Shown here in pieces: positions 8,652 to 26,400 of a DNA stretch of 26,400 bases. The notes beneath the pieces were generated by a model. The model saw only the letters and a list, made by a program, of their open reading frames with translations, ran no database searches and was not told where the DNA came from. The stretch's first letter is position 1, and every line of letters begins with the position of its first letter. The stretch lies in UHGV virus genome UHGV-0369576. One strand, 5' to 3'. Source of the DNA: a virus. Both the position numbers and the translations under genes were made by a program.

Positions 8652-8665
8652 CGTATTTCTCCTGA

Positions 8666-10717: not shown

Positions 10718-10728
10718 AATGACCTCGG

Positions 10729-12968: not shown

Positions 12969-13116
12969 AATCGGTCTTACCTATCAATCGTTTGTTCACA
13001 TTTCCAAAAAAAAGTTTTCGAACCTGCGGCGATATGAGGAAGGGTCAGGCGGCGGTACTGAGCAGCCAGGGTTGCAGAGATTTGACCCGCCCCTCCCCTA
13101 CAGATGGGAACTGTTA

Positions 13117-13467
13117 TCAATTGATGCGTTCGCGCGCTGTTTTTGCTTTATGACAGGGCCAGCACAGACTCTGCAGGTTACTGTCTGCATCCGTGCCACC
13201 ATGAGCTTTCGGAATGATGTGGTCCACAGTTCTGGCTTCAACGGCTCTCCCATTGCGCAGGCAGTTCTGACACAGATGATTATCACGCTTCAGTATGCGC
13301 GCACGTATGGCATCCCATTTCGAGCCATAGCCACGCTGGTGGCGGCTCAGTCCGCGTTGATGCTGTACCCATCCTTCGCCACGATGTTTATCGCAGTAAC
13401 CAGAACTGTCTGTGGTTGTACCTGCACATCCACGCTTACGGCAGGCGCGTGGGATTCGTGATGGCAT
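13117..13467 (-). CDS. HNH endonuclease (packaging-associated)
   Basis: Cys pairs and HNH motif (CQNCLRNGR...VDHIIPKAHGG...CWPCHKAK); immediately upstream of TerS as in HK97-like cos phages. Confidence 0.85.
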   Translation of the reverse strand: MPSRIPRACRKRGCAGTTTDSSGYCDKHRGEGWVQHQRGLSRHQRGYGSKWDAIRARILKRDNHLCQNCLRNGRAVEARTVDHIIPKAHGGTDADSNLQSLCWPCHKAKTARERIN

Positions 13468-13474
13468 AAATACC

Positions 13475-13675
13475 TCACCCCCTGTTCAGTTGAATGACGG
13501 GCTGATTCTCGATATGTTCTGCTGTCAGTCTGAAAGTCACAGTGACTGTTGGTGGCTCGCCTCCGCGTGACTCTGTCCTGGCGGAAAGCTGCCCTTCCAG
13601 TAACTCACCATCAACTGCAATCCCATACCCTGCGAAATGTTTACCACGATACAGTTTAGCGACCTGAAACTTCAT
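13475..13675 (-). CDS. Hypothetical protein (66 aa)
   Basis: ATG with AAGGAAGAG SD; coupled upstream of the HNH gene. Confidence 0.45.
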   Translation of the reverse strand: MKFQVAKLYRGKHFAGYGIAVDGELLEGQLSARTESRGGEPPTVTVTFRLTAEHIENQPVIQLNRG

Positions 13676-13919
13676 AACTCTTCCTTTTAGACATGTTAGA
13701 CGTGAACCTGTCGCACGGCAGAGTCGCCGAAAGTTTACGGTTTACCCAGGCTCACAGCTGAAAGCCTTTCTTAGATGTGCACATGCGATATGCTTTGAAT
13801 GAATTATTAAAAACTTTACTCTTTTTCAAAATTTCGTATCCTGGCTCGTTAATGTTAAAGAATTAAACGTAAGAAAGTAGTATGTTGAATCGCTTATATC
13901 AAAATACATAGGACTCAAA

Positions 13920-14405
13920 ATGCCAGAACTCGTTGATCCAACAGACTCATTAATTAGTTTTCAATACGCCTTTTCTAATGGTCTGATTAAGCCTTCACCA
14001 TGCATAGTTCACCCAAATATGAAGGTGCTTTTGGATGATGCAGAGGGTACGCCACGGTTTACTTATGCATTCTTTGAAGGAGAAAATGTTAAAGGTGTTG
14101 CTATATATGTCCCTGCAGAGTTTGTTGAAGGTAAACCATGCTTTGGCGTTGGCTATGCAGTAGCCGATGAATATAAAGCGCAAGGCATCGGTACTCAACT
14201 TCTCATCGCCAGCATTGAAGAAATGCAATACGGATTTAGAAATTCCTTCAATGAATTCTATGTAGAGGCTATTGTCGGGGTTGGTAATCAAGCCTCCAAC
14301 AAATTAGCTGCAAAAGTTTTATCTGATACTCCTGAGCCAGGGACAGATTCTTACTCAGGAAAACCTATCAATCAGTACATGAAACTTTTCAAAACCACAA
14401 AATAA
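13920..14405 (+). CDS. GNAT-fold N-acetyltransferase-like moron
   Basis: Motif-A-like VGYAVADEYKAQGIGTQLL (Q-x-x-G-x-G) and motif-B-like FYVEAIVGVGNQASNKLAAKV; opposite strand to all neighbours; AT-rich; own AGGA SD and downstream hairpin. Confidence 0.55.
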   Translation: MPELVDPTDSLISFQYAFSNGLIKPSPCIVHPNMKVLLDDAEGTPRFTYAFFEGENVKGVAIYVPAEFVEGKPCFGVGYAVADEYKAQGIGTQLLIASIEEMQYGFRNSFNEFYVEAIVGVGNQASNKLAAKVLSDTPEPGTDSYSGKPINQYMKLFKTTK

Positions 14406-14415
14406 CTACCATTCT

Positions 14416-14437
14416 GGCGCAGATTTTTGCGCCTTTT
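14416..14437 (+). terminator. Hairpin plus short T-run after the GNAT-like gene
   Basis: ggcgc-agattttt-gcgcc followed by tttt on the plus strand. Confidence 0.35.
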
Positions 14438-14583
14438 CAGGTTTGCAGTTCACCTGCCACGCTTTGTTATGCACCTGAATGTCCCGCTTCGTCTGTTGCA
14501 TTATCATAAGTAATAGCGTAGGTTGACACCTTGGCTCTCTTTCGCCACCGGCGAATCTTTAGCGGATTATCCTTGGCCGTTTT

Positions 14584-15051
14584 TTATCTGAGACATTGCT
14601 CACGAATGTATAGCTGTGCCCCTTCCAGTTGCTTCTGCATCGTCATCAACCGTTCTCTGAGGGTGAAATAATCCCGTTCAGCGGTGTCTGCCAGTCGGGG
14701 GCTGGTTGCATTATCCACGCTGGTGGGTCCGGTGGCTTCACGCACGGCTGCGGAGCAACTGGCATTGACCCGCAGGCGCTTACGACCAGCGGCAACATCA
14801 GCGCGCAGAGTTTCATTTTCAGCTTTCGCATTGGCTAATTCTCTCGAGTACTTTGCATCGAGCGCAGCAACATCACGCTGACGCTGTTGCATGTCAGCGA
14901 TGGTGGCAGTCGCCTGCTTCAGCTCACTGACTTTTTTATCACGCTGTTCTTTGTAGGCGATGGCGTTATCACGGTAATGATTGACCGCCCACGACAGGCA
15001 GACGATGGTGCAGATAACCAGAGTATAAATAATCGCTGCGACTCTGCTCAC
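14584..15051 (-). CDS. Rz: Rz i-spanin
   Basis: N-terminal TM helix then coiled-coil; GTG start overlaps endolysin stop (GTGA); contains embedded Rz1. Confidence 0.8.
14646..14831 (-). CDS. Rz1: Rz1 o-spanin lipoprotein embedded in Rz in the +1 frame
   Basis: Signal peptide with lipobox VSAC, proline-rich mature part, entirely within Rz. Confidence 0.8.
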
Positions 15052-15581
15052 TGATCTATCCCCCAACAGGCTAATGCGCTTTCCTGGTCACGACGAATAA
15101 CCTGTCCATAGCAGTTATTTGAACGTATGCGGCAATCGCGCCCACCATCTTTTATCCACCAGCGAATCGCCTCGCATGCGCCCTTACGATCACCGGCATT
15201 CAGCCGCTTATAAAACGTCGACGGGAAACACTTACCGGGGCCAATGTTATAGGGACAGAATGACGCTATACCCGCTTTCTGTGGTTCGGTCAGTGGTACT
15301 TTAATATTGCGCTCCACCCATGCCAGCGCCTTATCACGTTCAATAGCGTTAACCTGGTCGCATTTTTCCTTCGACAGCTTCATTCCCGGTATGACGGGCT
15401 TACCATCCACCATTGTGGCACCACGACAGATGGTCCATATACCGGAACCATCGCGGTATGCCGTAGTGTGGTTACCCTCTTTTTCATCCAGAAACTGGTC
15501 AAGTATTTGAGGAGCAGACGCGCCTGCAGCAATCAGCGCCAGAACAGCAGCTGACAGGCCGTATTTGATTTTTGCGCTCAT
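15048..15581 (-). CDS. R: SAR endolysin (lysozyme-like)
   Basis: N-terminal Gly/Ala-rich weakly hydrophobic SAR segment ([16 protein letters not shown]) followed by an E...D...T catalytic region. Confidence 0.85.
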
Positions 15582-15636
15582 GGATATTTATCAGGATGCT
15601 ACCAATGAAAGATACTGGAAAGCCAACTGCAAAAAG

Positions 15637-15951
15637 CTAACAACCTGTAATCGAGTTATCAGAACTGTTAATTTTTATGGTATACCGCGCCTCTGAACAG
15701 GGGCGCGTTTCTGGCAACAGCTCGTCCCCTTCACATAACCCGGCAGCAACATCCAGGAAGACCTGTCTGATGCTCCTTCTGGCTGCTGCCTCATAAAACT
15801 CCAGCGCGGCACCTTCAACACGGTCCAGCGAGATGTCCAAGCCAAAAATTTCACCGTCAAAGCGTTTTTTGTCCCGTAACGCTAAAGTTACCGTAACTTT
15901 ATTCTCAAAATTGCGGATCCCTTTCACAATCAGTTCATAGTTTTGAGTCAT
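15637..15951 (-). CDS. Hypothetical protein (104 aa) inserted between holin and endolysin
   Basis: ATG at 15951 with GGAGAG SD, 4 nt after the holin stop; no TM segment; no recognisable motif. Confidence 0.6.
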   Translation of the reverse strand: MTQNYELIVKGIRNFENKVTVTLALRDKKRFDGEIFGLDISLDRVEGAALEFYEAAARRSIRQVFLDVAAGLCEGDELLPETRPCSEARYTIKINSSDNSITGC

Positions 15952-15955
15952 TGAA

Positions 15956-16171
15956 TTACTCTCCCCGTGCAGCCTTACGCTTGTCTTCTCTGATTTTGAA
16001 GTACAGATTTGTCAGATAAGTCAGGAAGCCCAGAACCAGACTCCCCAGTACACCAATCGCAGCCCACTGTGACGGACTGACCTGATCAAGCCACTGTAAA
16101 AACCAGTAGCCAGCACTGCCTGCGGAGGTGCCGTAGGCAATGCCCGTTGAAATTTTGTCCATGGATTTCAT
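15956..16171 (-). CDS. S: Pinholin (phage 21 S-like) with dual-start motif
   Basis: 71 aa, [30 protein letters not shown]..., two TM helices, MKSM dual start; GGAGGTGAGG SD. Confidence 0.9.
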
Positions 16172-16229
16172 AGCCTCACCTCCGCAAATAACGGATGGCG
16201 TAGTTTTACACTGAGAAATGAAAGGGATT

Positions 16230-16255
16230 TGAAAAGAAAAAACCGCAAAAGCGGG
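16230..16255 (-). terminator. Terminator-like hairpin upstream of the holin gene
   Basis: ccgc-aaaa-gcgg stem followed on the minus strand by a T-rich run. Confidence 0.35.
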
Positions 16256-16330
16256 CGAAACGATATATACAGAAAGGAAAGCACTCTATCCAACAAACCA
16301 CCCACAGTTAATCGGAATAAAAGCAGAGTG

Positions 16331-16404
16331 CTTATGAATGATCGCCTGCCCGAAGGTTAGTATTTCTGCACAGCAATTTTGCAAAAAAAGGCGATCATTC
16401 ATAA
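16331..16404. repeat. Perfect 15-bp inverted repeat separated by 43 bp
   Basis: ttatgaatgatcgcc at about 16332..16346 and its reverse complement ggcgatcattcataa at about 16390..16404. Confidence 0.7.
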
Positions 16405-16463
16405 CTTAAACGTCTTTCAGTCACTCCGGGATTTCCCATCATCGCAGACTGAAAGACTCTAAC

Positions 16464-16538
<75 letters not shown>

Positions 16539-16541
16539 ATA

Positions 16542-16617
<76 letters not shown>

Positions 16618-16619
16618 AC

Positions 16620-16696
16620 TGGACCGCCACCGGGGACTCGAACCTCGCACACTCAACTTAAAGGGTTGACGCTCTTTCCTGATGAGCTAGTGGCGG
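16620..16696 (-). tRNA. tRNA-like gene with non-canonical features (anticodon region CCUUUAA, possibly UUU/Lys)
   Basis: Perfect 7-bp acceptor stem starting C1-G72, D and T arms present, encoded CCA, but C at position 33 and an A-C mismatch in the T stem. Confidence 0.45.
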
Positions 16697-16697
16697 C

Positions 16698-16773
16698 TGG
16701 TGGCCCTTGCTGGATTTGAACCAGCGACCTGGCGATTATGAGTCGCTCGCTCTCACCACTGAGCTAAAGGGCC
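16698..16773 (-). tRNA. tRNA with CAU anticodon (Ile2/Met type, ileX/ileZ-like)
   Basis: Anticodon loop CUCAUAA; overall similarity to E. coli ileX from memory; encoded CCA. Confidence 0.7.
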
Positions 16774-16877
16774 GGGCGCAGGATAATAACGTTACGAAAT
16801 CAATGTTGCAAGCATTCAAAAATCACCCTTATCTCCTCCACCAGCGCATTCACCATGTCTATCCGAGATAAGTGGCA

Positions 16878-16904
16878 CAAAAAACCCGCTTGTGGGCGGG
16901 TTTT
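16878..16904 (-). terminator. tR'-like intrinsic terminator downstream of the late promoter
   Basis: cccgc-ttgtgg-gcggg stem flanked by A-run and T-run (bidirectional), about 50 nt downstream of the predicted pR' start. Confidence 0.55.
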
Positions 16905-16955
16905 GTTTGCTTTTGCCATCACGTACAAAATCGGCAAAATATCAGATTTGCATGA

Positions 16956-16984
16956 AATATATGCCTTTCAATCTACTTTTGCAA
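16956..16984 (-). promoter_or_regulatory. pR'-like late promoter
   Basis: Minus-strand TTGCAA, 17-nt spacer, TATATT, overlapping the 3' end of the Q-like gene. Confidence 0.5.
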
Positions 16985-17657
16985 CACTTTGCTTTGAAAA
17001 TGCCACCTTTTGTTTTGAACGTGTTCTCATTACAAACAATAAAGCCTCACTATCAAGTCGGTGAAAAATGTGTTTCATTGCAACCCAGTGACGAGTAAAT
17101 GTTTTGGACCAGTTTTTAGTTGTCACTCCCGCCAGTAATGCCAGCTCCTGGTATTCATAACCTTCCCCACCAAAAAGTTCTGCTTTTACTGCCTGCGCCG
17201 CCAGCCAGATTAATTTTTTCAGGCGTTCCTGCGTTTTCCCTGCAATTTTTCTGGTACCGGATTGAGTATTAAATTCATTCCACGCCCACTGTGTTATCGC
17301 GATCTGATATTCCCAACAAATACTCCCGCTGTAACACCACAACAACCAGGCTTTATGATGTTCTTCAAGAGACAGAACTGCCCGTCGCCATGATGATGTC
17401 GAAAACTCAACCTGACTTACCAGAGCAATTGATGAGCCTTTCGCCAGTGATTGTTTTCCCGGTATCGGTGGACTATCCCGCGTTATCATTCTTCCAGTCA
17501 CTTCATCGCGGTACCGGATTTTTTTACGCCTGTAACGCCCTGTATCAAACATGGCATTCTCCTGCCAGGCTTCAAGCTGACCTTTTGTTGCCCCACTCAA
17601 ATCAGCGGTAGCGATAATGAGCTGCTCACGCACAAACTGTAAATACTGGTTATTCAT
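16968..17657 (-). CDS. Late-gene antiterminator Q-like protein
   Basis: Position between RusA and the pR'/tR'/lysis genes; ATGA overlap with RusA stop; no specific motif recognised, call is positional. Confidence 0.55.
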   Translation of the reverse strand: MNNQYLQFVREQLIIATADLSGATKGQLEAWQENAMFDTGRYRRKKIRYRDEVTGRMITRDSPPIPGKQSLAKGSSIALVSQVEFSTSSWRRAVLSLEEHHKAWLLWCYSGSICWEYQIAITQWAWNEFNTQSGTRKIAGKTQERLKKLIWLAAQAVKAELFGGEGYEYQELALLAGVTTKNWSKTFTRHWVAMKHIFHRLDSEALLFVMRTRSKQKVAFSKQSVAKVD

Positions 17658-18013
17658 GCGCACTCCAGTTCTGTGATTTTTATCCCCAGCCGACCACCAG
17701 GAACAGGCAGTCCGCGCACAATATTGATTTCATCAAACTGCTCGTCGTCTATGAGAAGTCCGGCATGCGTCAGCGCATCCAGTGGTGCCTTCAGGATATT
17801 GTCCAGGTCGCGGCGGCGCTTATCCGGTGGCTCTGCAATAATTTTTATTGCCAGCCTTCCGGACAGGTTTAATTTCAACCGCTGCTGGCGAACAATTAGT
17901 GCCACATCACGGCGATAACGCTCACCGACTTTTGATACAAAATATGTGTTGCCACGACGTCGCCAGTAAGTATTCACCGTCGGCGGATAAGGCAAAACAA
18001 ACTCTATACGCAT
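17654..18013 (-). CDS. rusA: RusA Holliday junction resolvase
   Basis: 119 aa, LPYPPTVNTYWRRRGN...RRRDLDNILKAPLDAL, RusA-family motifs. Confidence 0.85.
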   Translation of the reverse strand: MRIEFVLPYPPTVNTYWRRRGNTYFVSKVGERYRRDVALIVRQQRLKLNLSGRLAIKIIAEPPDKRRRDLDNILKAPLDALTHAGLLIDDEQFDEINIVRGLPVPGGRLGIKITELECA

Positions 18014-18025
18014 CAGTAACCTCTT

Positions 18026-19147
18026 TTACCCGAGCACGCCGGTTGCAAAGGCGTGATCAAGAAAACGAAAAATTAAATCAACCTGGGAACCATGCTTTTC
18101 TTCGAACGCCAGCGGATCCGCATGAAGTTCGTTGTGATGTTCCCGGCACAACGGTAGCGTGAAAATATCGTGGGCCTTTGTTCCCATCCCTCCCTGACCG
18201 TGACCAATCAGGTGATGGGGATCGTCGGCTGGCTGACCACAACACGCACACGGCTGTGTCTTCACCCAGCGCGTATATTTCTCATTTAGCCAACGGCGAC
18301 GTTTAGGTCGCCTCATGAAAGATTCCGGAGACTCCGGATCAACGGTGATGCATACCACCGTCTTTTCCTGTGGTGGGTTCTGTTGCTGGTGGGCATGAGG
18401 CAACGGCGCAAGATTTTTTGTGCGCTGCTTCAGTATGCTGGTGGCGGTCTGCTCTCCCGGTACGATGTCGCTTTCGCGGTACAAGGAGCGGATTTTTTCC
18501 GCACGTACCCCCAGAGAACGACGTAATACTGCCTCCGGAAGCGCGTCCGCCACCTGATTGCAGACCGCCCACCAAGATAATTCAGCCAGCGACAATTCCC
18601 GCTCCTGCGTGCCATTCATTGCATGGCGTATGACGTCAATCATCCATGCTGACAGGTTTTGATGAGCAAGTTGCCCGAGTGATTCGGATGTCTGGTCACG
18701 CAACTGGTTGTCGCAGTGCCAGCACAACACCATCGCGCTGGTACCGTAACGATGTATGACGATTTCACTGTGATGATAGTCACCATGAGGCCACTGGCAG
18801 GATTTGACATGACGCAACAGCCAGTCAGACAGCGCCCCAGCGCCGCCAGCAGCACGAATCACCCGCTCATCGCTGAAAAATGGCAGTAATGATTTATCCT
18901 CCGCCAGCGGCTGGCGAACGGCAGGGACGACTCCGGACGGCAGACCGCGCATGCTTTTCGGTTCAGGCTCCACCAGCACTCGAGGGTTATGAAATACTTG
19001 CATGGATTCACGGCCCGGCCTAAGGACCACCAGCCCGAGTTCCGGTACCAGAACAGGTCGAAGTAATATCCGCACGTTACCTCCAGATCCGTTGCTGGTA
19101 TGTGCGGGATGGGCGCGGTGGGCGTTCGGAATAAGGGAGCCTGACAT
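18026..19147 (-). CDS. DUF968-family protein with C-terminal Cys/His-rich (HNH-like) region
   Basis: C-terminal CACCGQPADDPHHLIGHGQGGMGTKAHDIFTLPLCREHHNELH; start uncertain (19147 or 19003). Confidence 0.6.
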   Translation of the reverse strand: MSGSLIPNAHRAHPAHTSNGSGGNVRILLRPVLVPELGLVVLRPGRESMQVFHNPRVLVEPEPKSMRGLPSGVVPAVRQPLAEDKSLLPFFSDERVIRAAGGAGALSDWLLRHVKSCQWPHGDYHHSEIVIHRYGTSAMVLCWHCDNQLRDQTSESLGQLAHQNLSAWMIDVIRHAMNGTQERELSLAELSWWAVCNQVADALPEAVLRRSLGVRAEKIRSLYRESDIVPGEQTATSILKQRTKNLAPLPHAHQQQNPPQEKTVVCITVDPESPESFMRRPKRRRWLNEKYTRWVKTQPCACCGQPADDPHHLIGHGQGGMGTKAHDIFTLPLCREHHNELHADPLAFEEKHGSQVDLIFRFLDHAFATGVLG

Positions 19148-19355
19148 AGATTATCCAGTGACGATAATCGAGGCTGAGGGCTTTCTTAATCTCGTATCCG
19201 CGTCTGCGATAGTTATGAATTAGCCATTCGGCCTGTTCTTCAGTACATGGGTCATGCTGGAACCAGTCAGATTTGAAAGTGCGGGAACGCCGCCCGTGCC
19301 TGCTGGCAAAGACGGCAGAATCATCAGAATTGTGTAATTTGGTATCGTGCGCCAT
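19077..19355 (-). CDS. Hypothetical basic protein (92 aa)
   Basis: ATG at 19355 downstream of a terminator; overlaps the DUF968 ORF if that starts at 19147. Confidence 0.4.
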   Translation of the reverse strand: MAHDTKLHNSDDSAVFASRHGRRSRTFKSDWFQHDPCTEEQAEWLIHNYRRRGYEIKKALSLDYRHWIIYVRLPYSERPPRPSRTYQQRIWR

Positions 19356-19426
19356 CGGTTGTCTCTGCTGGCGCAGCAGGTGCCAGTTGTTCAGGCTGGC
19401 GTGCGAATTGTAAACCAGAATGCCAG

Positions 19427-19452
19427 GAAAAAACAAAACCCGCCGAAGCGGG
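19427..19452 (-). terminator. Intrinsic terminator
   Basis: cccgc-cgaa-gcggg stem followed on the minus strand by ttttgtttttt. Confidence 0.55.
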
Positions 19453-19651
19453 TATGCTAAAACAAACTGAAAGTAATATACCGGACTTGTAAAGGAACGA
19501 TAGAATAATTATTGGATTAAACCCTGACTCAATCCAGATTTCATAGACAACAACTACGGACTAATCATCACAGTCATGTTTGATAGACTTAGTCCACATT
19601 GGGTGAGGGTTTACGGCGTTTTCACTAATAATTTATCGTCCAAGCTATACA

Positions 19652-20044
19652 CTACTGCCCTGTTTTAACGAAGTTTTTAAAGGAAACAACTGCCTGATAG
19701 GGGTTTGGTTGACAGCCAAACATATTATCGCAAAAAGGCTTGATGAAAATTCTTGAGGATCCATCTTCATTTGGCATTTTACTCACTTGATAAGCGAGGA
19801 ATGGACTATTTGGAGAGGGATTATAAGTGGAAATTAGCGTGTCTGTCGCCGTTTGAATTTTCCATGAGGAATTATTAGCCAACCAGAATTGCGCTCGTTT
19901 CCAATAAAAGTCACATTGCTTTTCATCATTACATGTTAGTGGCTTCATTGCTTCTGCTTTCAACGCTGGATCGATCTTTGCTGCACACCCTCCCAACATT
20001 ACTGTTGCAATCATTACACCTGCGACTAAAACAAGTTTCTTCAT
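19652..20044 (-). CDS. Lipoprotein (130 aa), AT-rich moron
   Basis: Signal peptide MKKLVLVAGVMIATVMLGGC with lipobox LGGC; six further Cys; low-GC gene bracketed by terminator hairpins. Confidence 0.65.
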   Translation of the reverse strand: MKKLVLVAGVMIATVMLGGCAAKIDPALKAEAMKPLTCNDEKQCDFYWKRAQFWLANNSSWKIQTATDTLISTYNPSPNSPFLAYQVSKMPNEDGSSRIFIKPFCDNMFGCQPNPYQAVVSFKNFVKTGQ

Positions 20045-20099
20045 CTCCCTGCCCCATCAATAAAAGTTCGGTTCTCTAATAACTAGAGTTAATCAACGG

Positions 20100-20120
20100 A
20101 AAAAACGCCGAAGCGGGTTA
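20100..20120 (-). terminator. Weak terminator-like hairpin with T-run
   Basis: Degenerate copy of the ccgc-cgaa-gcgg hairpin preceded on the plus strand by aaaaaa. Confidence 0.3.
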
Positions 20121-20187
20121 AGTGCGGGTGCGTTGAGGATGCCTGACACATCAGAGGTGGCGAGGGATTTCTCCCCCGCCAGGTCTC

Positions 20188-20343
20188 TTACTCCTCAGGT
20201 TCGTAAGCTGTGAAGACAGCGACCTCCGTCTGGCCGGTTCGGATTCGTACCTCGCAGAGGTCTTTCCTCGTTACCAGTGCCGTCACAATGACGGTTAAAC
20301 AGATGACGATCAGGGCGATTAACATCGCCTTTTGCTGCTTCAT
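20188..20343 (-). CDS. hokD: Hok-family type I toxin (HokD/RelF-like)
   Basis: 51 aa, MKQQKAMLIALIVICLTVIVTALVTRKDLCEVRIRTGQTEVAVFTAYEPEE; single TM helix and conserved Hok C-terminal region. Confidence 0.8.
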   Translation of the reverse strand: MKQQKAMLIALIVICLTVIVTALVTRKDLCEVRIRTGQTEVAVFTAYEPEE

Positions 20344-20579
20344 AGCCTGCTTCTCCTTGCCTTTCGGCACGTAAGAGGCTAACCTAGATTTGCCGTTCAT
20401 AGATTGAGCCTCAGATTAATGTTAAGCGTCTTGCAGGACGCGTAATGTTAACTGGGGCTTTTCTCTATCTGCCTTTGGTGTTCATGCCTGAGACAGATAG
20501 CCTCAAGCACCCGCAGCCATTCTACTTAACTCCCGTTACCTCGCCAATATAAAATCAATCAGAAAGGTGATCCATAAAA

Positions 20580-21266
20580 TCACTCCTTCTCTTCTTTTCC
20601 GTAGTGGAGTTGGCCAATTTTGATAAGAGGGCGTCCCTGAGATTTGCGGTGTAGATTGGTATCGCGCAGAGAATACACACAGCCACAATATTCCTGCTGA
20701 TAGAATTTTTCGCGCTTGCTGATTTCAATCATACGGGACGAGCCGCCCTGCTTGCGCCAGTTATAATCCCAGTACACCATACCCGGATAATGCGCAACAG
20801 CTCGCCGCCCACACTCGTTAACCTGCTGCATATTTTTCCAGCGTGAAATGCCCAGTGAACTGCTGATCACACTGAAACCATTTTCAGCAGCGTACAACGC
20901 TGTCCGCTCAAAACGCATGTCAAAACACATGGTACAACGGATCCCCCTCTCAGGCTCCCATTCCATTCCTTTGGCACGTTCAAACCAGTTGTCGGTGTCG
21001 TAATCAGCATCGATAAACGGCACGCCGTGTTGTTCAGCAAAGCGAATATTTTCATCCTTACGAATTAAATACTCTTTCTGAGGATGAATGTTCGGGTTGT
21101 AGAAAAAGATGGTGTAGTCGATTCCCGAGGCCTGAAGCGCCTCCATCACTTCACCGGAACATGGAGCACAGCAAGAGTGCAGTAGTAGTTTGTTTGCCCC
21201 GTTTGGGAGCTCCAATTTAGGCCGTTTGAAATCAGCAATAGTCATAAATATTTTTATTGGGGTCAT
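20580..21266 (-). CDS. Cys-rich DUF208/QueH-like protein (putative epoxyqueuosine-reductase family)
   Basis: N-terminal [14 protein letters not shown] motif plus further Cys clusters (CTMCFD, EYCGCVY); family assignment from memory of the motif only. Confidence 0.45.
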
Positions 21267-21419
21267 GAAAATAGCACAGAGTGTAGCATCAGAGCAGGTC
21301 TATCGGGAATATATGTCTAAATCTGGTAATATCTGGTTTTGACGCAAAGCGGACAACCACGCTGGCTCTACCCTGCGCCATGAAAATGTCAATTCACATC
21401 TGAACTAATGCTCTTTAAT

Positions 21420-21845
21420 CTAGTAACGTCTAAAATACCTAACATTTCCTTGATAAAATGCCAGTACACGCTGCATAGCTTCGCTCTTCCGGCACTCGCG
21501 ACAGATTATATTCAGGCGCCTGTCGTAGCGGCGTATTTCGCCGTCTGGTAACGACCAGATAAGGTCCGGATCAACCACTGCAGGTTTCTTCACCTTTGCC
21601 CTTGAGAGTTTTTTGCGAGCATTTTGCCAGTCCTTACGCGCCTGTTCAGACGGGAATAACCCGTAACCAGAGTTGTATACATCGCCACTGGCAACCAGCT
21701 CTCTGGCGAGAACACTCATCAGATATCTTGTCGCACCTGTCCTGGCTTCCAGTTGCCGCAACGTCTCGCGACCGCTCAGACGTACAAGTTCAACAACCTG
21801 CCCTTTAATTTTTTCCCGCTCTTCTTGTGTAAATACTTTTGCCAT
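21420..21845 (-). CDS. Hypothetical protein (141 aa), possible HTH
   Basis: ATG at 21845 with GGAGG SD, coupled to the upstream gene; basic C-terminus. Confidence 0.45.
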   Translation of the reverse strand: MAKVFTQEEREKIKGQVVELVRLSGRETLRQLEARTGATRYLMSVLARELVASGDVYNSGYGLFPSEQARKDWQNARKKLSRAKVKKPAVVDPDLIWSLPDGEIRRYDRRLNIICRECRKSEAMQRVLAFYQGNVRYFRRY

Positions 21846-21860
21846 AAGCGCCTCCGGCAA

Positions 21861-22631
21861 TCACTTTTCCGATACAACACGGCGGGAAGAATCAGTAATC
21901 TGTCGAACAATATCCCGGTGCTTGTTCAGCTCCCGCAGCGCGGCGCAGACTCGCTCCCACTTCTGAACATCACTTTTCGCCCTGCGCAGCGCCAGGTTTG
22001 CCCTGCGAAGGGACGGAAAAATCAGCTCATCTGCTTGCGTTTCGGTAAACGATGGCAACGGCTGCACAATGTCCGCCACAGTTTCTGTTTTAATTTCTTC
22101 CTGTGTTGCGGCTTCCCGGACTGGTAACGCAGCACCTGCTGGCTGAGGAAAGGCCTTACCATCACTTTCCGTTACCAGCGCGGCTTTCGGCTCTGCTGGT
22201 AAATTATCGCCCGGCATGCAGTAACGAAATTTACCGTTCTGATTAACGCGTGCCAGCCGCCCCGTTGCGGTTACCACCGCCAGCGTGGAAGCAACCTTGC
22301 GAGTACTGACACCGAACTTACCCGCCAGTTCCTCACACGTTTTAGCCCCATCCTGACCGATAAACTCAATCATCATGTCTGCGGTAACTTTTTGTTCGAC
22401 CTCCCCGGTCAGCATATCCTGTGCTTCAGATTTTACTGGCCGCTCTTCGGTTACCCGGGATTCACCTTCGCCAGCCAGAAACCAGGTGTGACCAGTTTTA
22501 TCAACGACGCCTTTTCTTTTGAGTTCCCACAGCTCGTTGACAGCCTCTTCACGACTGATTCCAAGGCGAGCTGCCACCACATGTGAAGAGGCTTTTTTCA
22601 GTGCTTTCAGTGCGTCAGATACGGTTTCCAT
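21861..22631 (-). CDS. Hypothetical protein (256 aa) with two winged-helix-like repeats
   Basis: Internal repeat AARLGISREEAVNELWELKRKGVV versus LAGKFGVSTRKVASTLAVVTATGRLARV; sits after the replication genes. Confidence 0.45.
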   Translation of the reverse strand: METVSDALKALKKASSHVVAARLGISREEAVNELWELKRKGVVDKTGHTWFLAGEGESRVTEERPVKSEAQDMLTGEVEQKVTADMMIEFIGQDGAKTCEELAGKFGVSTRKVASTLAVVTATGRLARVNQNGKFRYCMPGDNLPAEPKAALVTESDGKAFPQPAGAALPVREAATQEEIKTETVADIVQPLPSFTETQADELIFPSLRRANLALRRAKSDVQKWERVCAALRELNKHRDIVRQITDSSRRVVSEK

Positions 22632-22652
22632 TAAAATTTCCTCCGGACAAAA

Positions 22653-23399
22653 TTACTTCACAACCCTCATATTGCTGACATTTGGACGCCAGCTATCCCA
22701 GTTAAACGTCACCCATCGACCACCGTTCATGGTCATGCGGTCCATAATCCTCTCACCAAGAAGCGTACTCATTGCGGCATGATTCAGGTTTGTTAACATC
22801 CCGACACTGCACAGTGATGCTGTCCGGCGATCAATTATCTGGTGCAATACCACCTGCTCGTTTTTCGTCTCCCGCTGAACGCCTATTTCATCCAGGACCA
22901 GCAAATCAACCCCGCAAAGCTCCTGTAAAAATTTTTCCCCGGATTTGCCGTTGTCGTAGCTGTCATGCAACACGCTCATGACGTCAGACACGGTGACGAT
23001 AATCACGCTGCGCCCCTTCACCATCAGCCGGTTGCCCATCGCCGCTGCAAGGTGATTTTTCCCGGTGCCGGTTTTACCGCTGAACACAAAATTCGTGCAC
23101 CCGGTCATCAGTTCGTCAGCTATGGATTTGGCCTGGCTCAGCGCGTATTTTTGCCCGTCGTTCTGCACCTGATAATTTGCAAACGAGCATTTGCTGTGCA
23201 GAGGCTGGATGCCCGAACGATTCAGGATTTTTTCCACCCGCAACTGGCGATTCTGGCGGTTAATCTCCTCGCTGCGTTTTCGTCCTTCAGCAAGTTGCCA
23301 TTCCCGCCACTCCTCCACCGTCCGGTACGGTGGAACCGACCCCTGTGGTGCAAGTCTGCGAATACGTTCAAGAACCCCAACTGCCGCAATGTTTTTCAT
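22653..23399 (-). CDS. DnaC-like replicative helicase loader (AAA+ ATPase)
   Basis: Walker A GKTGTGKNHLAAA and Walker B LLVLDEIG. Confidence 0.85.
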   Translation of the reverse strand: MKNIAAVGVLERIRRLAPQGSVPPYRTVEEWREWQLAEGRKRSEEINRQNRQLRVEKILNRSGIQPLHSKCSFANYQVQNDGQKYALSQAKSIADELMTGCTNFVFSGKTGTGKNHLAAAMGNRLMVKGRSVIIVTVSDVMSVLHDSYDNGKSGEKFLQELCGVDLLVLDEIGVQRETKNEQVVLHQIIDRRTASLCSVGMLTNLNHAAMSTLLGERIMDRMTMNGGRWVTFNWDSWRPNVSNMRVVK

Positions 23400-23405
23400 G
23401 ACACG

Positions 23406-24368
23406 TCACCCCCTGAATCCCGGCGGTATTTCAGTGTCCGGTTCAGAAATGTGATTCACGCAACGCTGCGCAGGCGAACGCCCCAGGCGGATAACCAGTT
23501 CATCCCATTTTTCCCGGAGTTTTGCCGGACTCATGATGTTTTTTACCCAGAACGAATCCCGCTGGAGACGCCCAAACATTTCACAAATTTGTCTGTGAGT
23601 TCTGCCATCCAGCATCCGCATTGTGCGAACGTCATTGGCCCATGCTGTCCAGTTGGGTTCTTTCGGTCTAGTGATCTCGCCATCATAGCTGGCCGCCTGC
23701 TCGTAAAGACTCACGATTCGTCCCCAGATCCACTGTGCGCACACCAAATCTTCCTGACTTCCCCACTGGCGTTTTTTCGCACTGAACACAACCGCGTCAG
23801 GGTGTCGGGTTAAAAAATCCTGTTCAGCCGTCTGCGGGTCCGGTTGCGAAGCGTCCGGACAAGAAGATCTTTTATCTGACGGATCAGGTTTTAATACTGA
23901 CGGATCGGGGTCAATCATCGCCCCCCTAATCGGCAGTTTTTTATCAACAGTTGATCCATCAAAATTTGACGGGTCAACCGTTGAGGGGTCAATATTTGAC
24001 GGGTCAACTGTTAACGGGTCATTTTTTGCCGGGCTAATTTTTCTTTTCGGTTTATATGACTCACGCGCCGCCGCCGCAGCTGCTTCGAGTTTTTCCACAT
24101 TAAGCCGATAGATATTGCTTACATTACGCCCACCGACCTTACGCTCTTCCTTCGTCAGCCAGCCCTCTTTCGCCAGTTCTGCAATAGCCGATTTCACTGT
24201 GGATTCACTTCTTGCACCGATCTGACGCCGGATAGTTTCAATGGCAGGCCATGACACGCCCTCGTCATTGCTGTAGTCTGCAAGACGGGCCATAACCGCC
24301 ACCCTGGATAAGATCATGCCGGTGAAGGCGCACCCTTCCCAGACAAGACCATGAAGCTTGCTGCTCAT
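23406..24368 (-). CDS. Replication initiator (lambda O-like) with N-terminal HTH
   Basis: Position upstream of the DnaC-like gene; contains an internal iteron array; start at ATG 24368 (GGGGG SD), track ORF extends to GTG 24383. Confidence 0.65.
   Translation of the reverse strand: MSSKLHGLVWEGCAFTGMILSRVAVMARLADYSNDEGVSWPAIETIRRQIGARSESTVKSAIAELAKEGWLTKEERKVGGRNVSNIYRLNVEKLEAAAAAARESYKPKRKISPAKNDPLTVDPSNIDPSTVDPSNFDGSTVDKKLPIRGAMIDPDPSVLKPDPSDKRSSCPDASQPDPQTAEQDFLTRHPDAVVFSAKKRQWGSQEDLVCAQWIWGRIVSLYEQAASYDGEITRPKEPNWTAWANDVRTMRMLDGRTHRQICEMFGRLQRDSFWVKNIMSPAKLREKWDELVIRLGRSPAQRCVNHISEPDTEIPPGFRG
23951..24025. repeat. Iteron array (about five 15-bp direct repeats), putative replication origin
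   Basis: ttgacgggtcaaccg / ttgaggggtcaatat / ttgacgggtcaactg / ttaacgggtcatttt plus degenerate copies upstream, followed by an AT-rich stretch. Confidence 0.6.
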
Positions 24369-24390
24369 AAAACCCCCGAACACCGTGCTT

Positions 24391-24816
24391 TTAGTGCATC
24401 ACCACAGCATTCCCTGCCGGGCCGCCGCGATTCATCTGGTCATACAAAACAACCGCTGACGCAACAAAATCATCGACATCCTTCACCAGCCGATCCCTCC
24501 GTTCGACGATCTCACGGTAATATTCAGAACTGTGGCTGCGCATACGGGCCACCAGCAAAGGCGGCATCGCCTTTTCGATCGCCGGTAACAGAGCCTGCAT
24601 TTTTTCAACAGCATCAGGGGTGTCTTTCTCTACCCAGCGGAAAATTTTCTGGGTATTGCGAGCCAGGGCTTCCGGATGGCTGTCGTCATACAGTTCTGGG
24701 AACGTCATACCCAACTCAAAATAAGCCTGGGTTATTCCAGCTGCTGGAACTTTTTCGCCATCAGGACGCGCCCAGGCATTCATCGCCATGCGGATGTGTT
24801 CATGCTTGATTTTCAT
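24391..24816 (-). CDS. YdaT-like protein in the cII position
   Basis: 141-aa ORF downstream of the Cro-like gene with AGGAG SD; family call from memory of Rac prophage gene order. Confidence 0.5.
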   Translation of the reverse strand: MKIKHEHIRMAMNAWARPDGEKVPAAGITQAYFELGMTFPELYDDSHPEALARNTQKIFRWVEKDTPDAVEKMQALLPAIEKAMPPLLVARMRSHSSEYYREIVERRDRLVKDVDDFVASAVVLYDQMNRGGPAGNAVVMH

Positions 24817-25081
24817 GAATCAAGCTCCTAGAAAGTGGTTGTGTTAACGTTTTGGTATCTTCCAGCTCGGGCCAAATATTCATCCAATCAAAAGGCCTTA
24901 GTTGCTGACGTGTAACTTCACCATTACTGGCTCGCTCAATAAGGACACATAACGATGCCCCTAACACTTGACCTTTACTCAATGCCTTTCTTAGATAACC
25001 GATGCTGGTACCACACTCGCATGCAAACATACGCTGTTCATCTGACGAAAGAGAATTGAGAAATATTCTTAATTCTTCCAT
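24800..25081 (-). CDS. Cro/YdaS-like HTH regulator
   Basis: 93 aa; HTH-like CGTSIGYLRKALSKGQ; divergent from the repressor; AAGGAG SD. Confidence 0.6.
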   Translation of the reverse strand: MEELRIFLNSLSSDEQRMFACECGTSIGYLRKALSKGQVLGASLCVLIERASNGEVTRQQLRPFDWMNIWPELEDTKTLTQPLSRSLIHENQA

Positions 25082-25104
25082 AGCTACTCCTTAGTAAACA
25101 CAGC

Positions 25105-25150
25105 AAAGAATACCCACAGGTAAACAAAAGTCAATACCCACAGGTTGTTT
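25105..25150. promoter_or_regulatory. Right operator region with PR-like promoter for the Cro-like gene
   Basis: Two copies of TACCCACAGGT(A/T) at about 25111 and 25135; minus-strand TTGACT, 16 nt, TATTCT with an operator inside the spacer. Confidence 0.55.
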
Positions 25151-25181
25151 ACCTTGCGGTAATCGCATCTATTATTTACCT

Positions 25182-25601
25182 ATGGACAAATATGAATTTA
25201 GACGACAGCAACTCATCAAAATTCGTGATGAGAAATGCGATGGTAAAGCGGTTAACGTGGCCAGAAAGATCGGGCGCGAGCCTTCTTATGTATCAAGAAT
25301 GTTGTACCCAGAGGGGAAAAAGGGAAAAAAACGGATCGCTGATGATATGGTGGAGATTATCGAAGAGTCCTTTGGGTTACCCCGGGGATGGATGGATGGT
25401 ATCGTTTCATCATCAACGAACACAGCCTCCAGTTATGAAACAAGGGTTCTAACGCCACGACAACGTATTTTTTTAGATCTCTTAGACGAACTGCCAGAAA
25501 GTGAAGCGGATAAATTATTAAAAACTCTTGAAGAGAAAAAACAGTATTACAATATGATCTACGAAGAAATCCGTAAAAAGAAAGCACAAAACGCATCATA
25601 G
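25182..25601 (+). CDS. Prophage repressor (HTH, no LexA-type cleavage domain)
   Basis: 139 aa; HTH-like AVNVARKIGREPSYVSRML; divergent from the Cro-like gene; flanked on both sides by the same palindromic operators. Confidence 0.7.
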   Translation: MDKYEFRRQQLIKIRDEKCDGKAVNVARKIGREPSYVSRMLYPEGKKGKKRIADDMVEIIEESFGLPRGWMDGIVSSSTNTASSYETRVLTPRQRIFLDLLDELPESEADKLLKTLEEKKQYYNMIYEEIRKKKAQNAS

Positions 25602-25639
25602 CTCACCAAACAACTAGTCACCAGTTAAGACACCGCAAA

Positions 25640-25685
25640 AATTTACCCATGGGTATTTACTTTTTAAATACCTATGGGTATCCTT
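25640..25685. promoter_or_regulatory. Left operator region with pL-like promoter
   Basis: Perfect palindrome TACCCATGGGTA at about 25644 and TACCTATGGGTA at about 25669; TTTACT, 17 nt, TATCCT on the plus strand. Confidence 0.5.
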
Positions 25686-25866
25686 CTTTTCATACCAACC
25701 CACCCCGCCCCACAGAATGCAGGGCAATACTTCGAGTTACCAGGCAGTGGTCAGGGGTTAAGTAGCCAGCCCGAGGCGTAAGAACATGACGGCAGGGTTC
25801 AACTTTAATAACTATGCAGCAGGTTTTTGTTCCGCTACCCCGGCGTTAAGGGGAAATGAGGTCAAC

Positions 25867-26022
25867 ATGGATACTATCGATCTTGGCAACAACGAATCTC
25901 TGGTGTACGGCGTGTTTCCCAACCAGGACGGCACGTTCACCGCGATGACGTATACCAAAAGCAAAACGTTTAAAACCGAAAATGGTGCCCGTCGCTGGCT
26001 GGAAAGAAACTCAGGTGAGTGA
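25867..26022 (+). CDS. Small early-left protein (YdaF-like, 51 aa)
   Basis: ATG with GAGG SD; MDTIDLGNNESLVYGVFPNQDGTF...; family call from memory. Confidence 0.5.
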   Translation: MDTIDLGNNESLVYGVFPNQDGTFTAMTYTKSKTFKTENGARRWLERNSGE

Positions 26023-26023
26023 T

Positions 26024-26152
26024 ATGGATTTCGACACAATCATGGAAAAGGCTTACGAAGAATACTTCGAAGACCTTGCCGAAGGCGAAGAAGCTCTCAG
26101 CTTCAGTGAGTTTAAACAGGCGCTTTCCAGCTCGGCAAAATCTAACGGCTGA
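26024..26152 (+). CDS. Small acidic early-left protein (YdaG-like, 42 aa), not in the ORF track
   Basis: ATG 1 nt after the preceding stop; MDFDTIMEKAYEEYFEDLAEGEEALSFSEFKQALSSSAKSNG. Confidence 0.45.
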   Translation: MDFDTIMEKAYEEYFEDLAEGEEALSFSEFKQALSSSAKSNG

Positions 26153-26181
26153 TAAGCGAAGTAGCACCGCGAGGAATCAGT

Positions 26182-26400
26182 ATGCAGAAACGAGAACCCG
26201 TCATAATCGCGCCAGACTATACCGATGATGAACTTTATGAGTGGATGCGCCAGAAAATTAATGCAGCGCAGGATCTGAAATGGGCTAATGAAGCCAGGGC
26301 TAAGCAGGCTGAAAATCTGTCCGCTCTGGAGCAGGATATCACCAATCTGGAAAAAGCAGCGGCATTAAGCATTGCCAGAATGATTACATACCCGCGTTAA
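26182..26400 (+). CDS. Hypothetical protein (72 aa)
   Basis: ATG with GAGGAA SD; stop at the window end. Confidence 0.5.
   Translation: MQKREPVIIAPDYTDDELYEWMRQKINAAQDLKWANEARAKQAENLSALEQDITNLEKAAALSIARMITYPR

Follow-up and report, generated by a model that had tools for sequence, protein, structure and literature searches.

The minus strand of the viral genome UHGV-0369576 (26,400 nucleotides, the whole of which is referred to here as the window) carries a gene for a 51-residue toxin of the Hok family, and the gene upstream of it is not relE, as in the Qin prophage of E. coli K-12, but one of the DUF208 type. The question raised by this locus is whether a hok gene in such a setting is an orphan, deprived of its regulation, or whether the control elements of a toxin-antitoxin module are still in place. 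A first-pass annotation had called it an orphan hok followed by a strong 3' hairpin, and had left two options for the leader, that it carries mok/sok-like control elements or that the toxin is unregulated or silent. The minus-strand segment 20547..20100 and, opposite it, an antisense gene at about 20357..20466 of the plus strand very probably make up a full hok/mok/sok type I toxin-antitoxin locus of the hokD type. The host element is a Qin/Rac-like lambdoid prophage of E. coli, in which the locus lies in the nin-like region, with the replication genes on one side and Q on the other. The features of the locus are as follows.

20519..20547, minus: hok/mok promoter from a promoter scan, with -35 TTGGCG (20547..20542), a 17-nt spacer and -10 TAGAAT (20524..20519)
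20100..20512, minus: predicted full-length mok-hok mRNA of about 413 nt, with its 5' end placed at 20512 and its 3' end at the T-run 20105..20100
20501..20512, minus: tac (translational activator) box, GGGUGCUUGAGG, located at the 5' terminus of the mRNA
20454..20460, minus: ucb or anti-Shine-Dalgarno box, AAGCCCC, counterpart of A70/G71/C72 in R1 (PMC9841398)
20409..20412, minus: mok Shine-Dalgarno sequence, GAGG, 8 nt upstream of the mok ATG
20188..20400, minus: mok reading frame from the list of open reading frames, 70 codons, in frame with hok and ending at the same stop codon
20375..20380, minus: dcb (downstream complementary box), AGCCUC, pairing with the mok Shine-Dalgarno region in the trimmed fold
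20353..20357, minus: hok Shine-Dalgarno sequence, AGGAG, read from the sequence
20188..20343, minus: hok (hokD) toxin gene, 51 aa, from the list of open reading frames, Pfam HOK_GEF and the RefSeq accession
20200..20205, minus: UACGAA, TadA A-to-I editing motif at the Tyr47 codon (Tyr to Cys recoding), read from the sequence
20158..20181, minus: stem-loop closing the predicted processed (truncated) hok mRNA, with 10 bp (one of them G-U), a GAAA loop and -19.6 kcal/mol
20126..20138, minus: fbi (fold-back inhibition) box, CCUCAACGCACCC, forming a 12-bp duplex with tac (-19.8 kcal/mol) and paired in the full-length minimum free energy (MFE) fold
20100..20117, minus: degenerate intrinsic terminator, CCCGCUUCGGCG + U6, with a stem of 3 bp only
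20357..20466, plus: putative Sok antisense RNA gene, with -35 TTGCCT (20357-20362), a 17-nt spacer and -10 TAACCT (20380-20385)

The toxin gene and its neighbours

The product of the open reading frame 20343..20188 on the minus strand is MKQQKAMLIALIVICLTVIVTALVTRKDLCEVRIRTGQTEVAVFTAYEPEE. Members of the Hok/Gef family were recognised by a length of about 50 residues, an N-terminal transmembrane helix, the motif RKxLCE(V/I)R and a score above the Pfam gathering score. The toxin belongs to the family by the Pfam search, in which the HOK_GEF profile (PF01848, cut-off 22 bits) matched it with 82.9 bits and an E-value of 1.2e-23 over profile positions 1-42 of 42. RefSeq names the protein HokD (WP_000813254.1), an accession that it has in common with a K-12-type strain, so that its first identification as HokD/RelF was confirmed. 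HokD is toxic when overexpressed (bioRxiv 10.1101/2025.08.07.668861), and would probably be toxic in the present context as well. The RefSeq annotation at the locus consists of the hokD coding sequence alone, without mok, Sok or RNA elements.

Conservation was assessed in a comparison set of 36 loci from at least eight genera (Escherichia, Shigella, Kluyvera, Citrobacter, Pseudocitrobacter, Photorhabdus, Pantoea and Erwinia). The Tyr47 codon lies in a TadA editing motif, and the hokD mRNA is edited at about 6% (PMC12214031); in 3 of the 36 loci the corresponding codon is TGC, which encodes cysteine.

The upstream neighbour encodes a 228-residue QueH/DUF208 protein (21266..20580, stop codon 20582..20580; Pfam QueH, E = 1.1e-65), as had been noticed at the outset, and neither relB nor relE was found in the window by the list of open reading frames, the Pfam search or the RefSeq comparison. 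The arrangement was not that of a relBE-hokD operon, with QueH upstream and the full hok leader in place. Loss of relBE through mis-assembly, which had been envisaged, is unlikely because the finished chromosome of E. coli AR_0077 has the same QueH-hokD arrangement. The identity between AR_0077 and the window was 99.8% over 15700-26400. Collinearity over the whole window was not retained as a claim, since the base-by-base comparison failed and the BLAST matches were collinear from 15700 onward only, the tail genes at the left end being rearranged or different. All of the genes from 25081 down to 16968 are on the minus strand, and hok is followed, after a 143-nt spacer, by the gene for a 130-residue lipoprotein.

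Control elements of the leader and the 3' region

The leader between the QueH stop and the hok ATG at 20343 spans 20344..20579 (about 237 nt). The leader is highly non-random: the Rfam model RF01794 (gathering score 59) matched it over 20512..20338 with 110 bits (E = 1.6e-24). The model, named sok, represents the hok-sense strand, so the match identifies the leader and was not taken as direct proof of an antisense transcript, although it lends support to a Sok gene at this place. Position 1 of the model aligns to 20512. The -10 hexamer of the hok promoter, which matches the consensus at 9 of 12 positions, sits at -12..-7 from the G at 20512, a spacing to +1 equal to that of R1 hok, where the -10 TATGAT was defined by mutation (PMC9841398).

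The mok frame was recognised by its upstream start, its overlap with hok and its own Shine-Dalgarno sequence. The start was kept in 36 of 36 loci, as was a GAGG 7-10 nt upstream of the ATG; the frame itself was in phase with hok in 26 loci, in the +1 frame in five and a short open reading frame of 19 codons in five.

On the opposite strand, the Sok RNA would begin near 20392 and end near 20466 in a long hairpin and U-tract, giving a transcript of about 75 nt that overlaps the mok translation-initiation region. Its promoter aligns with TTGCGC-17-TATCCT of the R1-type locus. The hexamers and their 17-nt spacing were kept in 29 of the 36 loci, the window among them, and the seven hokC-type loci have a gapped ACTCT -10. 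The Sok hairpin folds at -31.5 kcal/mol (z = -4.3), and the matching helix showed five compensatory pairs and hardly any G-U, the pattern to be expected of a sequence that has to fold on both strands. The search that the first-pass annotation had proposed, for a mok frame, fold-back elements and a Sok-like promoter, thus recovered all three (the 70-codon mok, tac/fbi and TTGCCT-17-TAACCT); the option of a leader with control elements was borne out, all of the canonical elements being found, and nothing in the sequence appears to favour a toxin that is unregulated or silent, since every regulatory element is intact and conserved.

The hairpin after the stop codon, first described as a 9-bp stem at 20159..20180, proved real, with 10 bp at 20181..20158 and coordinate shifts of 1-2 nt. 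None of 200 shuffled sequences folded as well (z = -4.0). Its stem (helix 16) was 82% paired in the 36 loci, with five pairs changed on both sides, and it occupies the position of GGCGGGC-GCAG-GCCCGCC in the R1-type locus, a stem in which each position is G or C. In R1, 19 substitutions that break the terminal stem abolish the truncated mRNA and toxicity (PMC9841398). The hairpin in the window is the positional equivalent of the R1 stem altered by G345A and C358A, a mapping that is approximate, within about 5 nt, since the plasmid copy used differs from R1 by small indels 5' of the Shine-Dalgarno sequence. The hairpin was also considered as a terminator and rejected: it has no U-tract (CCACCUCUGAUG comes next), the terminator scan was negative and the conserved fbi box lies downstream. 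The hairpin was not, as it had been read at first, an isolated 3' element. It is a conserved stem that closes the processed hok mRNA, the counterpart of the one that in plasmid R1 protects the processed, translatable message; the fbi box lies further 3', and the functional transcript runs about 60-80 nt past the hairpin, through that box.

The single slightly unusual feature of the locus is the terminator after fbi, which is truncated. This allele reads CCCGCTTCGGCG + T6 in DNA letters, at a place where CCCGCTTCGGCGGG + T5 is found in K-12 and in most of the other loci. A terminator scan of 19900-20800 found none, and the local fold at the degenerate terminator was no better than shuffles. The junction between the truncated terminator and the lipoprotein gene is common to 254 E. 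coli genomes. Because of the truncation, the primary transcript may end further downstream, which would alter the kinetics.

Alternative RNA folds and their conservation

The MFE fold of the full-length mRNA (-164.3 kcal/mol, z = -7.3) paired tac with fbi and ucb with the mok Shine-Dalgarno sequence, which was thereby sequestered. In the 3'-trimmed RNA, tac was paired with ucb and the mok Shine-Dalgarno region with dcb. The two states of the model described for plasmid R1 (PMC9841398) thus both came out as MFE folds, one for the full-length and the other for the trimmed RNA, and the R1-type reference locus folded alike. A further hairpin, formed locally at the mok AUG in the full-length fold (helix 5), was poorly conserved, with 51% pairing over the loci, and is not claimed.

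When the structure derived from the window was imposed on the 36 loci, 85.2% of the cells were paired, compared with 38-45% when the partners were slid, and 36 pairs were changed on both sides, compared with 11-23 in the slid controls. The long-range tac/fbi helix was 91.7% paired; pair 4/404 was U-A in 22 loci, C-G in 11 and U-G in two, a compensatory switch. Column counting of tac/fbi pairs 7-12 undercounts Photorhabdus, which lacks the bulged C and is shifted by one column; per-sequence duplex folding showed these loci to be fully paired. All 18 distinct tac/fbi combinations formed duplexes of -14 to -26 kcal/mol, compared with -9.2 +/- 2.7 kcal/mol for shuffled fbi. The contrast between own and foreign partners was small (-21.0 vs -18.9 kcal/mol) because most changes pass through G-U; duplex energy was therefore a weak measure of tac/fbi co-evolution, and column covariation and the shuffled-fbi control were used in its place.

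The alternative leader pairs were near-invariant and so show conservation, not covariation. The seven tac/ucb pairs were paired in 99.6% of cells over the 36 loci; four of the five pairs of GAGGC/GCCUC, between the Shine-Dalgarno sequence and dcb, were invariant and the fifth was paired in 34 of 36. The sole variable position of tac is the one bulged in the tac/ucb stem, a sign of dual constraint. With the exception of these leader pairs, covariation accompanied the presence, arrangement and conservation of all of the elements.

Known relatives, mechanism and competing readings

The hok/mok/sok (parB) locus of plasmid R1, archetype of the type I toxin-antitoxin systems, has the same elements as the window in the same order and spacing: promoter, tac at +1, ucb, mok Shine-Dalgarno GAGG, mok start, dcb, hok Shine-Dalgarno, hok, hairpin and fbi. 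In both, dcb overlaps the Sok -10, a G+C-rich terminal hairpin lies about 6-10 nt past the stop, the same two conformations are predicted and the toxin falls in the same Pfam family, HOK_GEF. The DNA of the R1-type locus has a mean column identity of 72% to that of the window, and the toxin sequences are markedly different. The window differs from R1 in the Sok hairpin, to which an apical stem-loop of some 16-20 nt is added (GCGUC-CUGCAA-GACGC, an insertion in the Rfam alignment), in the bulged C of the tac/fbi helix, in the degenerate terminator and in its location in a prophage and not on a conjugative plasmid.

The hokD (relF) gene of the K-12 Qin prophage encodes the identical 51-residue protein in the same type of neighbourhood, with a DUF968 gene and Q downstream, and its DNA is about 98% identical from the hok Shine-Dalgarno sequence through fbi. 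Homology to the window starts near position 20357, which precedes the hok ATG by about 13-16 nt, and the Shine-Dalgarno AGGAG is the first stretch still in common. Upstream of this point K-12 has no promoter, tac, ucb, mok start, Sok transcript or Sok -35, and relB-relE stand in their place (PMC6379469). The ancestral hokD frame had about 70 codons, reduced to 51 in K-12 because relBE integrated there (PMC6379469). Beyond fbi, K-12 has the full terminator and rem, whereas the window has the lipoprotein gene.

Close relatives of the whole cassette are prophage and phage loci annotated mok/hok or MokW/HokW, for example in phage Rac (MN652886), mEp460 and Stx-converting phages. Their DNA is 88-98% identical, and they too lie with the replication/nin genes on one side and Q on the other; the flanking cargo genes are others, QueH being that of the window, and mok of the Rac phage is thrown out of frame with hok by a 1-nt insertion (GGTCAAGG). 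About 100 phage records also contain the locus, under the names hokD, mok/hok or MokW, and hok is enriched in prophages (bioRxiv 10.1101/2025.08.07.668861). Among 5426 complete E. coli genomes the locus was found in 3844-4287, with an intact leader in 4287, and the K-12 relE-hokD junction in 1173, so the rarity implied by the word orphan did not hold up. The framing itself was not supported, since relBE does not belong to the hok system and its insertion in K-12 removed the promoter, tac, the mok start and the Sok gene of hokD.

By homology with R1 hok/sok, and with each structural step recovered in silico on this sequence, a mechanism can be proposed. The constitutive promoter would give an mRNA of about 410 nt from 20512, in which the 5' tac and 3' fbi are paired and ucb masks the mok Shine-Dalgarno sequence, so that the full-length RNA would be stable, untranslatable and inaccessible to Sok. 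Slow 3'-to-5' exonucleolytic trimming would strip fbi and presumably halt at the G+C-rich hairpin 20181..20158, whereupon the leader would refold into tac/ucb and Shine-Dalgarno/dcb, exposing the mok start and the Sok target. As long as the element is present, short-lived Sok, complementary in sequence to the region of the mok start and presumably expressed, would bind the trimmed mRNA and RNase III would cleave the duplex. Once Sok synthesis stops, through DNA loss or a transcription block, mok would be translated and hok with it by coupling, and the 51-residue membrane toxin would kill or arrest the cell. Such a module may serve prophage retention or phage exclusion.

An intact architecture is no guarantee of killing activity, since the intact chromosomal hokA, hokB and hokC that were tested gave neither post-segregational killing nor rifampicin activation (Pedersen & Gerdes 1999, as summarised in bioRxiv 10.1101/2025.08.07.668861). 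The locus could accordingly be structurally intact yet inert, weakly transcribed or never activated and carried as a passenger of the prophage, and the truncated terminator and a promoter that is merely a 9-of-12 match would fit with this. We consider this unlikely, though it has a real chance of being correct: all of the regulatory elements are kept, with compensatory substitutions across genera, a sign that the RNA mechanism is under purifying selection; expression of the HokD peptide is toxic; and R1 hok, present as one copy in the chromosome and transcribed from its native promoter, is lethal when Sok is absent (PMC9841398).

It is less probable that hok belongs to a longer transcription unit, either read through from the early-right operon or continuing into the lipoprotein gene, with regulation unlike that of an autonomous R1-type cassette. 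The neighbours are co-oriented from 25081 to 16968, no terminator-like site was found in 19900-20800 and the truncated terminator/lipoprotein junction recurs in 254 genomes; however, a conserved promoter belongs to the locus itself and stands at the canonical distance from tac, the internal tac/fbi pairing needs no defined ends in silico and the 143-nt spacer before the lipoprotein gene bears no sign of coupling. Such a longer unit modifies the main explanation and does not replace it. A more speculative extension, to which we give little credence, is that in this allele, which lacks the canonical terminator, the hok transcript continues towards the lipoprotein gene, retuning fbi release and the killing timer or coupling the lipoprotein to hok mRNA processing; more broadly, the early-right operon position could make Hok an effector of prophage induction or abortive infection and not a retention module. 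A lipoprotein coupled in this way would possibly be a superinfection-exclusion factor.

That hok is an orphan which lost its relBE partner and became unregulated or silent, with the 3' hairpin as terminator, is scarcely credible: relBE is indeed missing and a hairpin does directly follow the stop codon, but relBE is an insertion specific to the K-12 type in place of the hokD leader (PMC6379469), the window has the full leader (110 bits to RF01794) with conserved mok and Sok elements, the hairpin is followed not by a U-tract but by a conserved fbi box that pairs with the mRNA 5' end, and the intact form is the commoner one (4287 vs 1173 genomes).

The hokD/mok/sok locus of the window is an ordinary full copy of a well-known RNA-controlled module, already known and without new biology. 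Its main value lies in a correction, namely that the textbook K-12 relBE-hokD arrangement is the derived, truncated one. The regulatory RNA architecture of such cassettes is missing from standard annotation and, when K-12 relBE-hokD is taken as the reference, the commoner intact hokD/mok/sok cassettes are misread as anomalies.

The hok cassette and its prophage setting

A lambdoid (Qin/Rac-like) prophage whose head genes are of HK97 type makes up the window. The minus strand carried, in order, regulators, replication genes, DUF1627, DUF977, QueH, hok and a gene for a 130-aa lipoprotein, followed by DUF968, RusA, Q, four tRNAs, lysis genes and then the terminase, head and tail genes. The hok cassette thus fell within the nin-like region that separates the replication genes from Q, a position at which many phage records have hok under the labels HokD, mok/hok, MokW or 'host killer'. 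Judged by its sequence, the cassette is a hokD-type hok/mok/sok system of a canonical and very common kind, with all its elements present.

Features of the hok cassette and its neighbors
21266..20580, minus: QueH/DUF208 epoxyqueuosine reductase, the gene directly upstream of hok
20547..20519, minus: sigma-70-like hok promoter (TTGGCG, 17 nt, TAGAAT)
20412..20409, minus: mok SD, GAGG, preceding the ATG at 20400
20400 (ATG), minus: start of the mok frame, 70 codons, in frame into hok
20357-20362 and 20380-20385, plus: putative Sok promoter (TTGCCT, 17-nt spacer, TAACCT), aligned with the R1-type promoter
20343..20188, minus: hok ORF, 51-aa peptide MKQQKAMLIALIVICLTVIVTALVTRKDLCEVRIRTGQTEVAVFTAYEPEE
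20181..20158, minus: post-stop hairpin, 10 bp with a GAAA loop, beginning 6 nt past the hok stop
20117..20100, minus: truncated terminator, CCCGCTTCGGCG and T6, with a 3-bp stem left
20044..19652, minus: predicted lipoprotein of 130 aa whose signal peptide ends in LGGC, directly downstream of hok, occupying the place of rem

The hok product was covered over the whole profile by Pfam HOK_GEF (82.9 bits, cut-off 22), and its RefSeq accession, WP_000813254.1, is common to the E. coli AR_0077 record, which has the same locus, and a K-12-type strain. Neither relB nor relE was found at the hok locus, where QueH lies upstream instead. The 51-aa HokD product, the DUF208-like gene upstream in place of relBE and the strong 3' hairpin agreed with the first-pass annotation to within 1-2 nt. 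The refuting case that it names, relBE being really upstream and the window mis-assembled, is unlikely because the finished AR_0077 chromosome has the same arrangement, with 99.8% identity to the window over 15700-26400.

Over 1-15700, which holds tail and lysis genes, the window was not collinear with AR_0077: 518-13484 matched at an offset of ~1030 nt, 14614-15597 had only 94.6% identity and the first ~500 nt matched partly inverted. The prophage is therefore a mosaic relative of that in AR_0077. QueH (20580-21266, minus), a tRNA queuosine-pathway enzyme, is prophage cargo in the nin-like region, and ~4 kb from it, at 16464-16773, is a cluster of four tRNAs, Gly-TCC, Thr-TGT, Lys-TTT and a CAT-anticodon tRNA called Met by ARAGORN and Ile by RefSeq.

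The Tyr47 codon of hok lies within UACGAA (20200-20205, minus), the TadA A-to-I editing motif, and editing there would recode Tyr to Cys. Editing of hokD mRNA has been put at ~6% (PMC12214031). TAC was kept at this position in 33 of 36 loci (the window and 35 aligned relatives), while three (L047, L049 and L060) had a hard-coded TGC Cys.

Control elements of the leader and the predicted fold of the mRNA

The Rfam model RF01794 ('sok') spanned 20512..20338 end to end (110 bits, gathering score 59, E = 1.6e-24). The match was on the hok-sense strand, where the model begins GGGUGCUUGAG at the hok mRNA +1 and finishes at the hok AUG, and it therefore recognizes the hok mRNA leader. As built, RF01794 describes this leader, with sok encoded antisense within it, rather than the antisense Sok RNA. 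The -10 of the hok promoter was at -12..-7 counted from the G at 20512, a geometry shared with TATGAT, the -10 of R1 hok defined by mutation (PMC9841398), and checked in an R1-type plasmid locus, L067.

On the opposite strand, the putative Sok promoter aligned column for column with the R1-type TTGCGC-17-TATCCT. Its -10 abutted dcb, the downstream complementary box, which agrees with the remark that an R1 Sok-promoter mutation is located in dcb (PMC9841398). The putative Sok transcript would run from ~20392, with a 5' tail that is single-stranded and complements the mok start, through a long hairpin (-31.5 kcal/mol, z = -4.3) to a U-tract ending near 20466; compared with the Rfam consensus, the hairpin apex in the window has an extra stem-loop of ~16-20 nt.

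The minimum free energy fold of 20512..20100 had -164.3 kcal/mol (z = -7.3). In this full-length fold, the 5' tac box GGGUGCUUGAGG was paired with the 3' fold-back inhibition box, fbi, CCUCAACGCACCC at 20138..20126, and the mok SD was paired with GCCCC at ~20458..20454, the core of the anti-SD box, ucb. When the 3' tail was trimmed to the hairpin (20512..20156), the fold switched: tac was now paired with ucb (AAGCCCC, 20460..20454), and the SD region GAGGCU and dcb AGCCUC (20380..20375) formed a hairpin presenting the mok start. These two predicted folds are those of the two-state model established for R1, where the full-length mRNA, closed by tac/fbi, is stable and untranslatable, and slow 3' processing is followed by refolding to tac/ucb and SD/dcb, permitting translation and Sok binding (PMC9841398). 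The full-length RNA of the R1-type locus had the same overall fold as the window.

The post-stop hairpin (-19.6 kcal/mol; 0 of 200 shuffles equally stable) was rejected as a terminator, having no U-tract on its 3' side and lying within a functional transcript that runs on through fbi. It is best read as a terminal stem that probably protects the processed hok mRNA, since the R1-type locus folds alike and has its own stem, GGCGGGC-GCAG-GCCCGCC, at the same place, 9 nt past the stop.

In most loci, fbi is followed by the terminator CCCGCTTCGGCGGG and T5. In the window, homology with other hokD loci broke inside the terminator 3' arm, where a different downstream module starts. A terminator scan over 19900-20800 found no site, and the local fold in the 20117..20100 region was no better than shuffles. 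The junction of terminator and lipoprotein gene was common to 254 of 5426 E. coli genomes; the lipoprotein, annotated as hypothetical, had no Pfam match.

Conservation across related loci

Scanning one genome for each species gave 62 related loci, 35 of which, having intact ends, were aligned with the window (Escherichia, Shigella, Kluyvera, Citrobacter, Pseudocitrobacter, Photorhabdus, Pantoea and Erwinia). As a control for covariation, the 3' partners were slid by 1-3 columns. A standard pair was present in 85.2% of cells for the structure as given and in 38-45% for slid partners, and the pairs changed on both sides numbered 36 and 11-23, respectively.

The tac/fbi helix was 91.7% paired, with pair 4/404 being U-A in 22, C-G in 11 and U-G in 2 loci; the bulged C is missing from the Photorhabdus loci, which the column method therefore undercounted. 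Folded as individual duplexes, 18 of 18 distinct tac/fbi combinations formed ~12 bp (-14 to -26 kcal/mol; shuffled-fbi controls, -9.2 +/- 2.7 kcal/mol). In the alternative state, the seven tac/ucb pairs were nearly invariant (99.6% of cells paired); four of the five SD/dcb pairs were invariant, the fifth being paired in 34 of 36 loci. The one variable tac base, position 4, is the base bulged in tac/ucb, and near-invariance of the others is the pattern that would be expected when two partners must be satisfied. In the helix that would also serve as the Sok terminator, compensatory changes occurred with almost no G-U, whereas sense-only helices had many G-U pairs, consistent with constraint on both strands.

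The putative Sok promoter hexamers and their spacing were kept in 29 of 36 loci, the window among them; a gapped ACTCT -10 was present in the seven hokC-type loci. The mok start and SD were present in all 36, while the mok frame was in frame with hok in 26 (including the window), in the +1 frame in 5 and a 19-codon ORF in 5. A variable frame with a constant start and SD fits the published view that what counts is the translation of mok, not the Mok peptide itself (PMC9841398).

A hokD-type copy in E. coli ECMA0423 (L013; CP178302.1, ~1354-1739) had the 5' box GACTGCATGTGG instead of GGGTGCTTGAGG, with hok and fbi intact, and looks like a natural inactivation of tac. In Kluyvera sp. CHPC 1.2972 (L043; NZ_JAPKIB010000020.1, ~1317-1716), the same relE-type sequence as in E. 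coli K-12 lay upstream of hok, with a clearly distinct Hok protein, MKQQSWRFITLII..., a sign that the junction of relBE and hok may have moved or recombined between hok variants.

The relBE-free form and the likely role of the cassette

In a K-12-type strain, homology with the window set in only ~13-16 nt upstream of the hok ATG, near 20357, preceded by the end of relE. Consequently, K-12 hokD lacks the promoter, tac, ucb, mok start, Sok transcript and Sok -35. The ancestral hokD ORF has been given as ~70 codons, reduced to 51 in K-12 by relBE integration (PMC6379469, citing Ramisetty & Santhosh 2016), and for the K-12 hok loci except hokB, inactivation through insertion elements or rearrangements has been suggested (PMC12214031). 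The leader (20530..20330, at least 80% coverage) was present in 4287 of 5426 complete E. coli genomes, the whole 501-nt cassette in 3844 and the K-12 relE-hokD junction in 1173. The description of hok as an "orphan" lacking relBE is therefore not supported, the relBE-free form being the ancestral and commoner state. The suggestion that the leader carries mok/sok-like control elements was borne out by the RF01794 match, the mok frame, tac/ucb/dcb and the putative Sok promoter; with a complete canonical cassette present, a hok that is "unregulated or silent" finds no support.

The complete hokD-type cassette of the window is already known. Its molecular mechanism may be assigned with high confidence on homology and conserved architecture. 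Expressed HokD peptide is toxic, and prophages show about four-fold enrichment of hok genes, but no post-segregational killing was seen when intact hokA, hokB and hokC loci on the chromosome were tested earlier (bioRxiv 10.1101/2025.08.07.668861). Prophage retention or phage exclusion are likely roles of the cassette.
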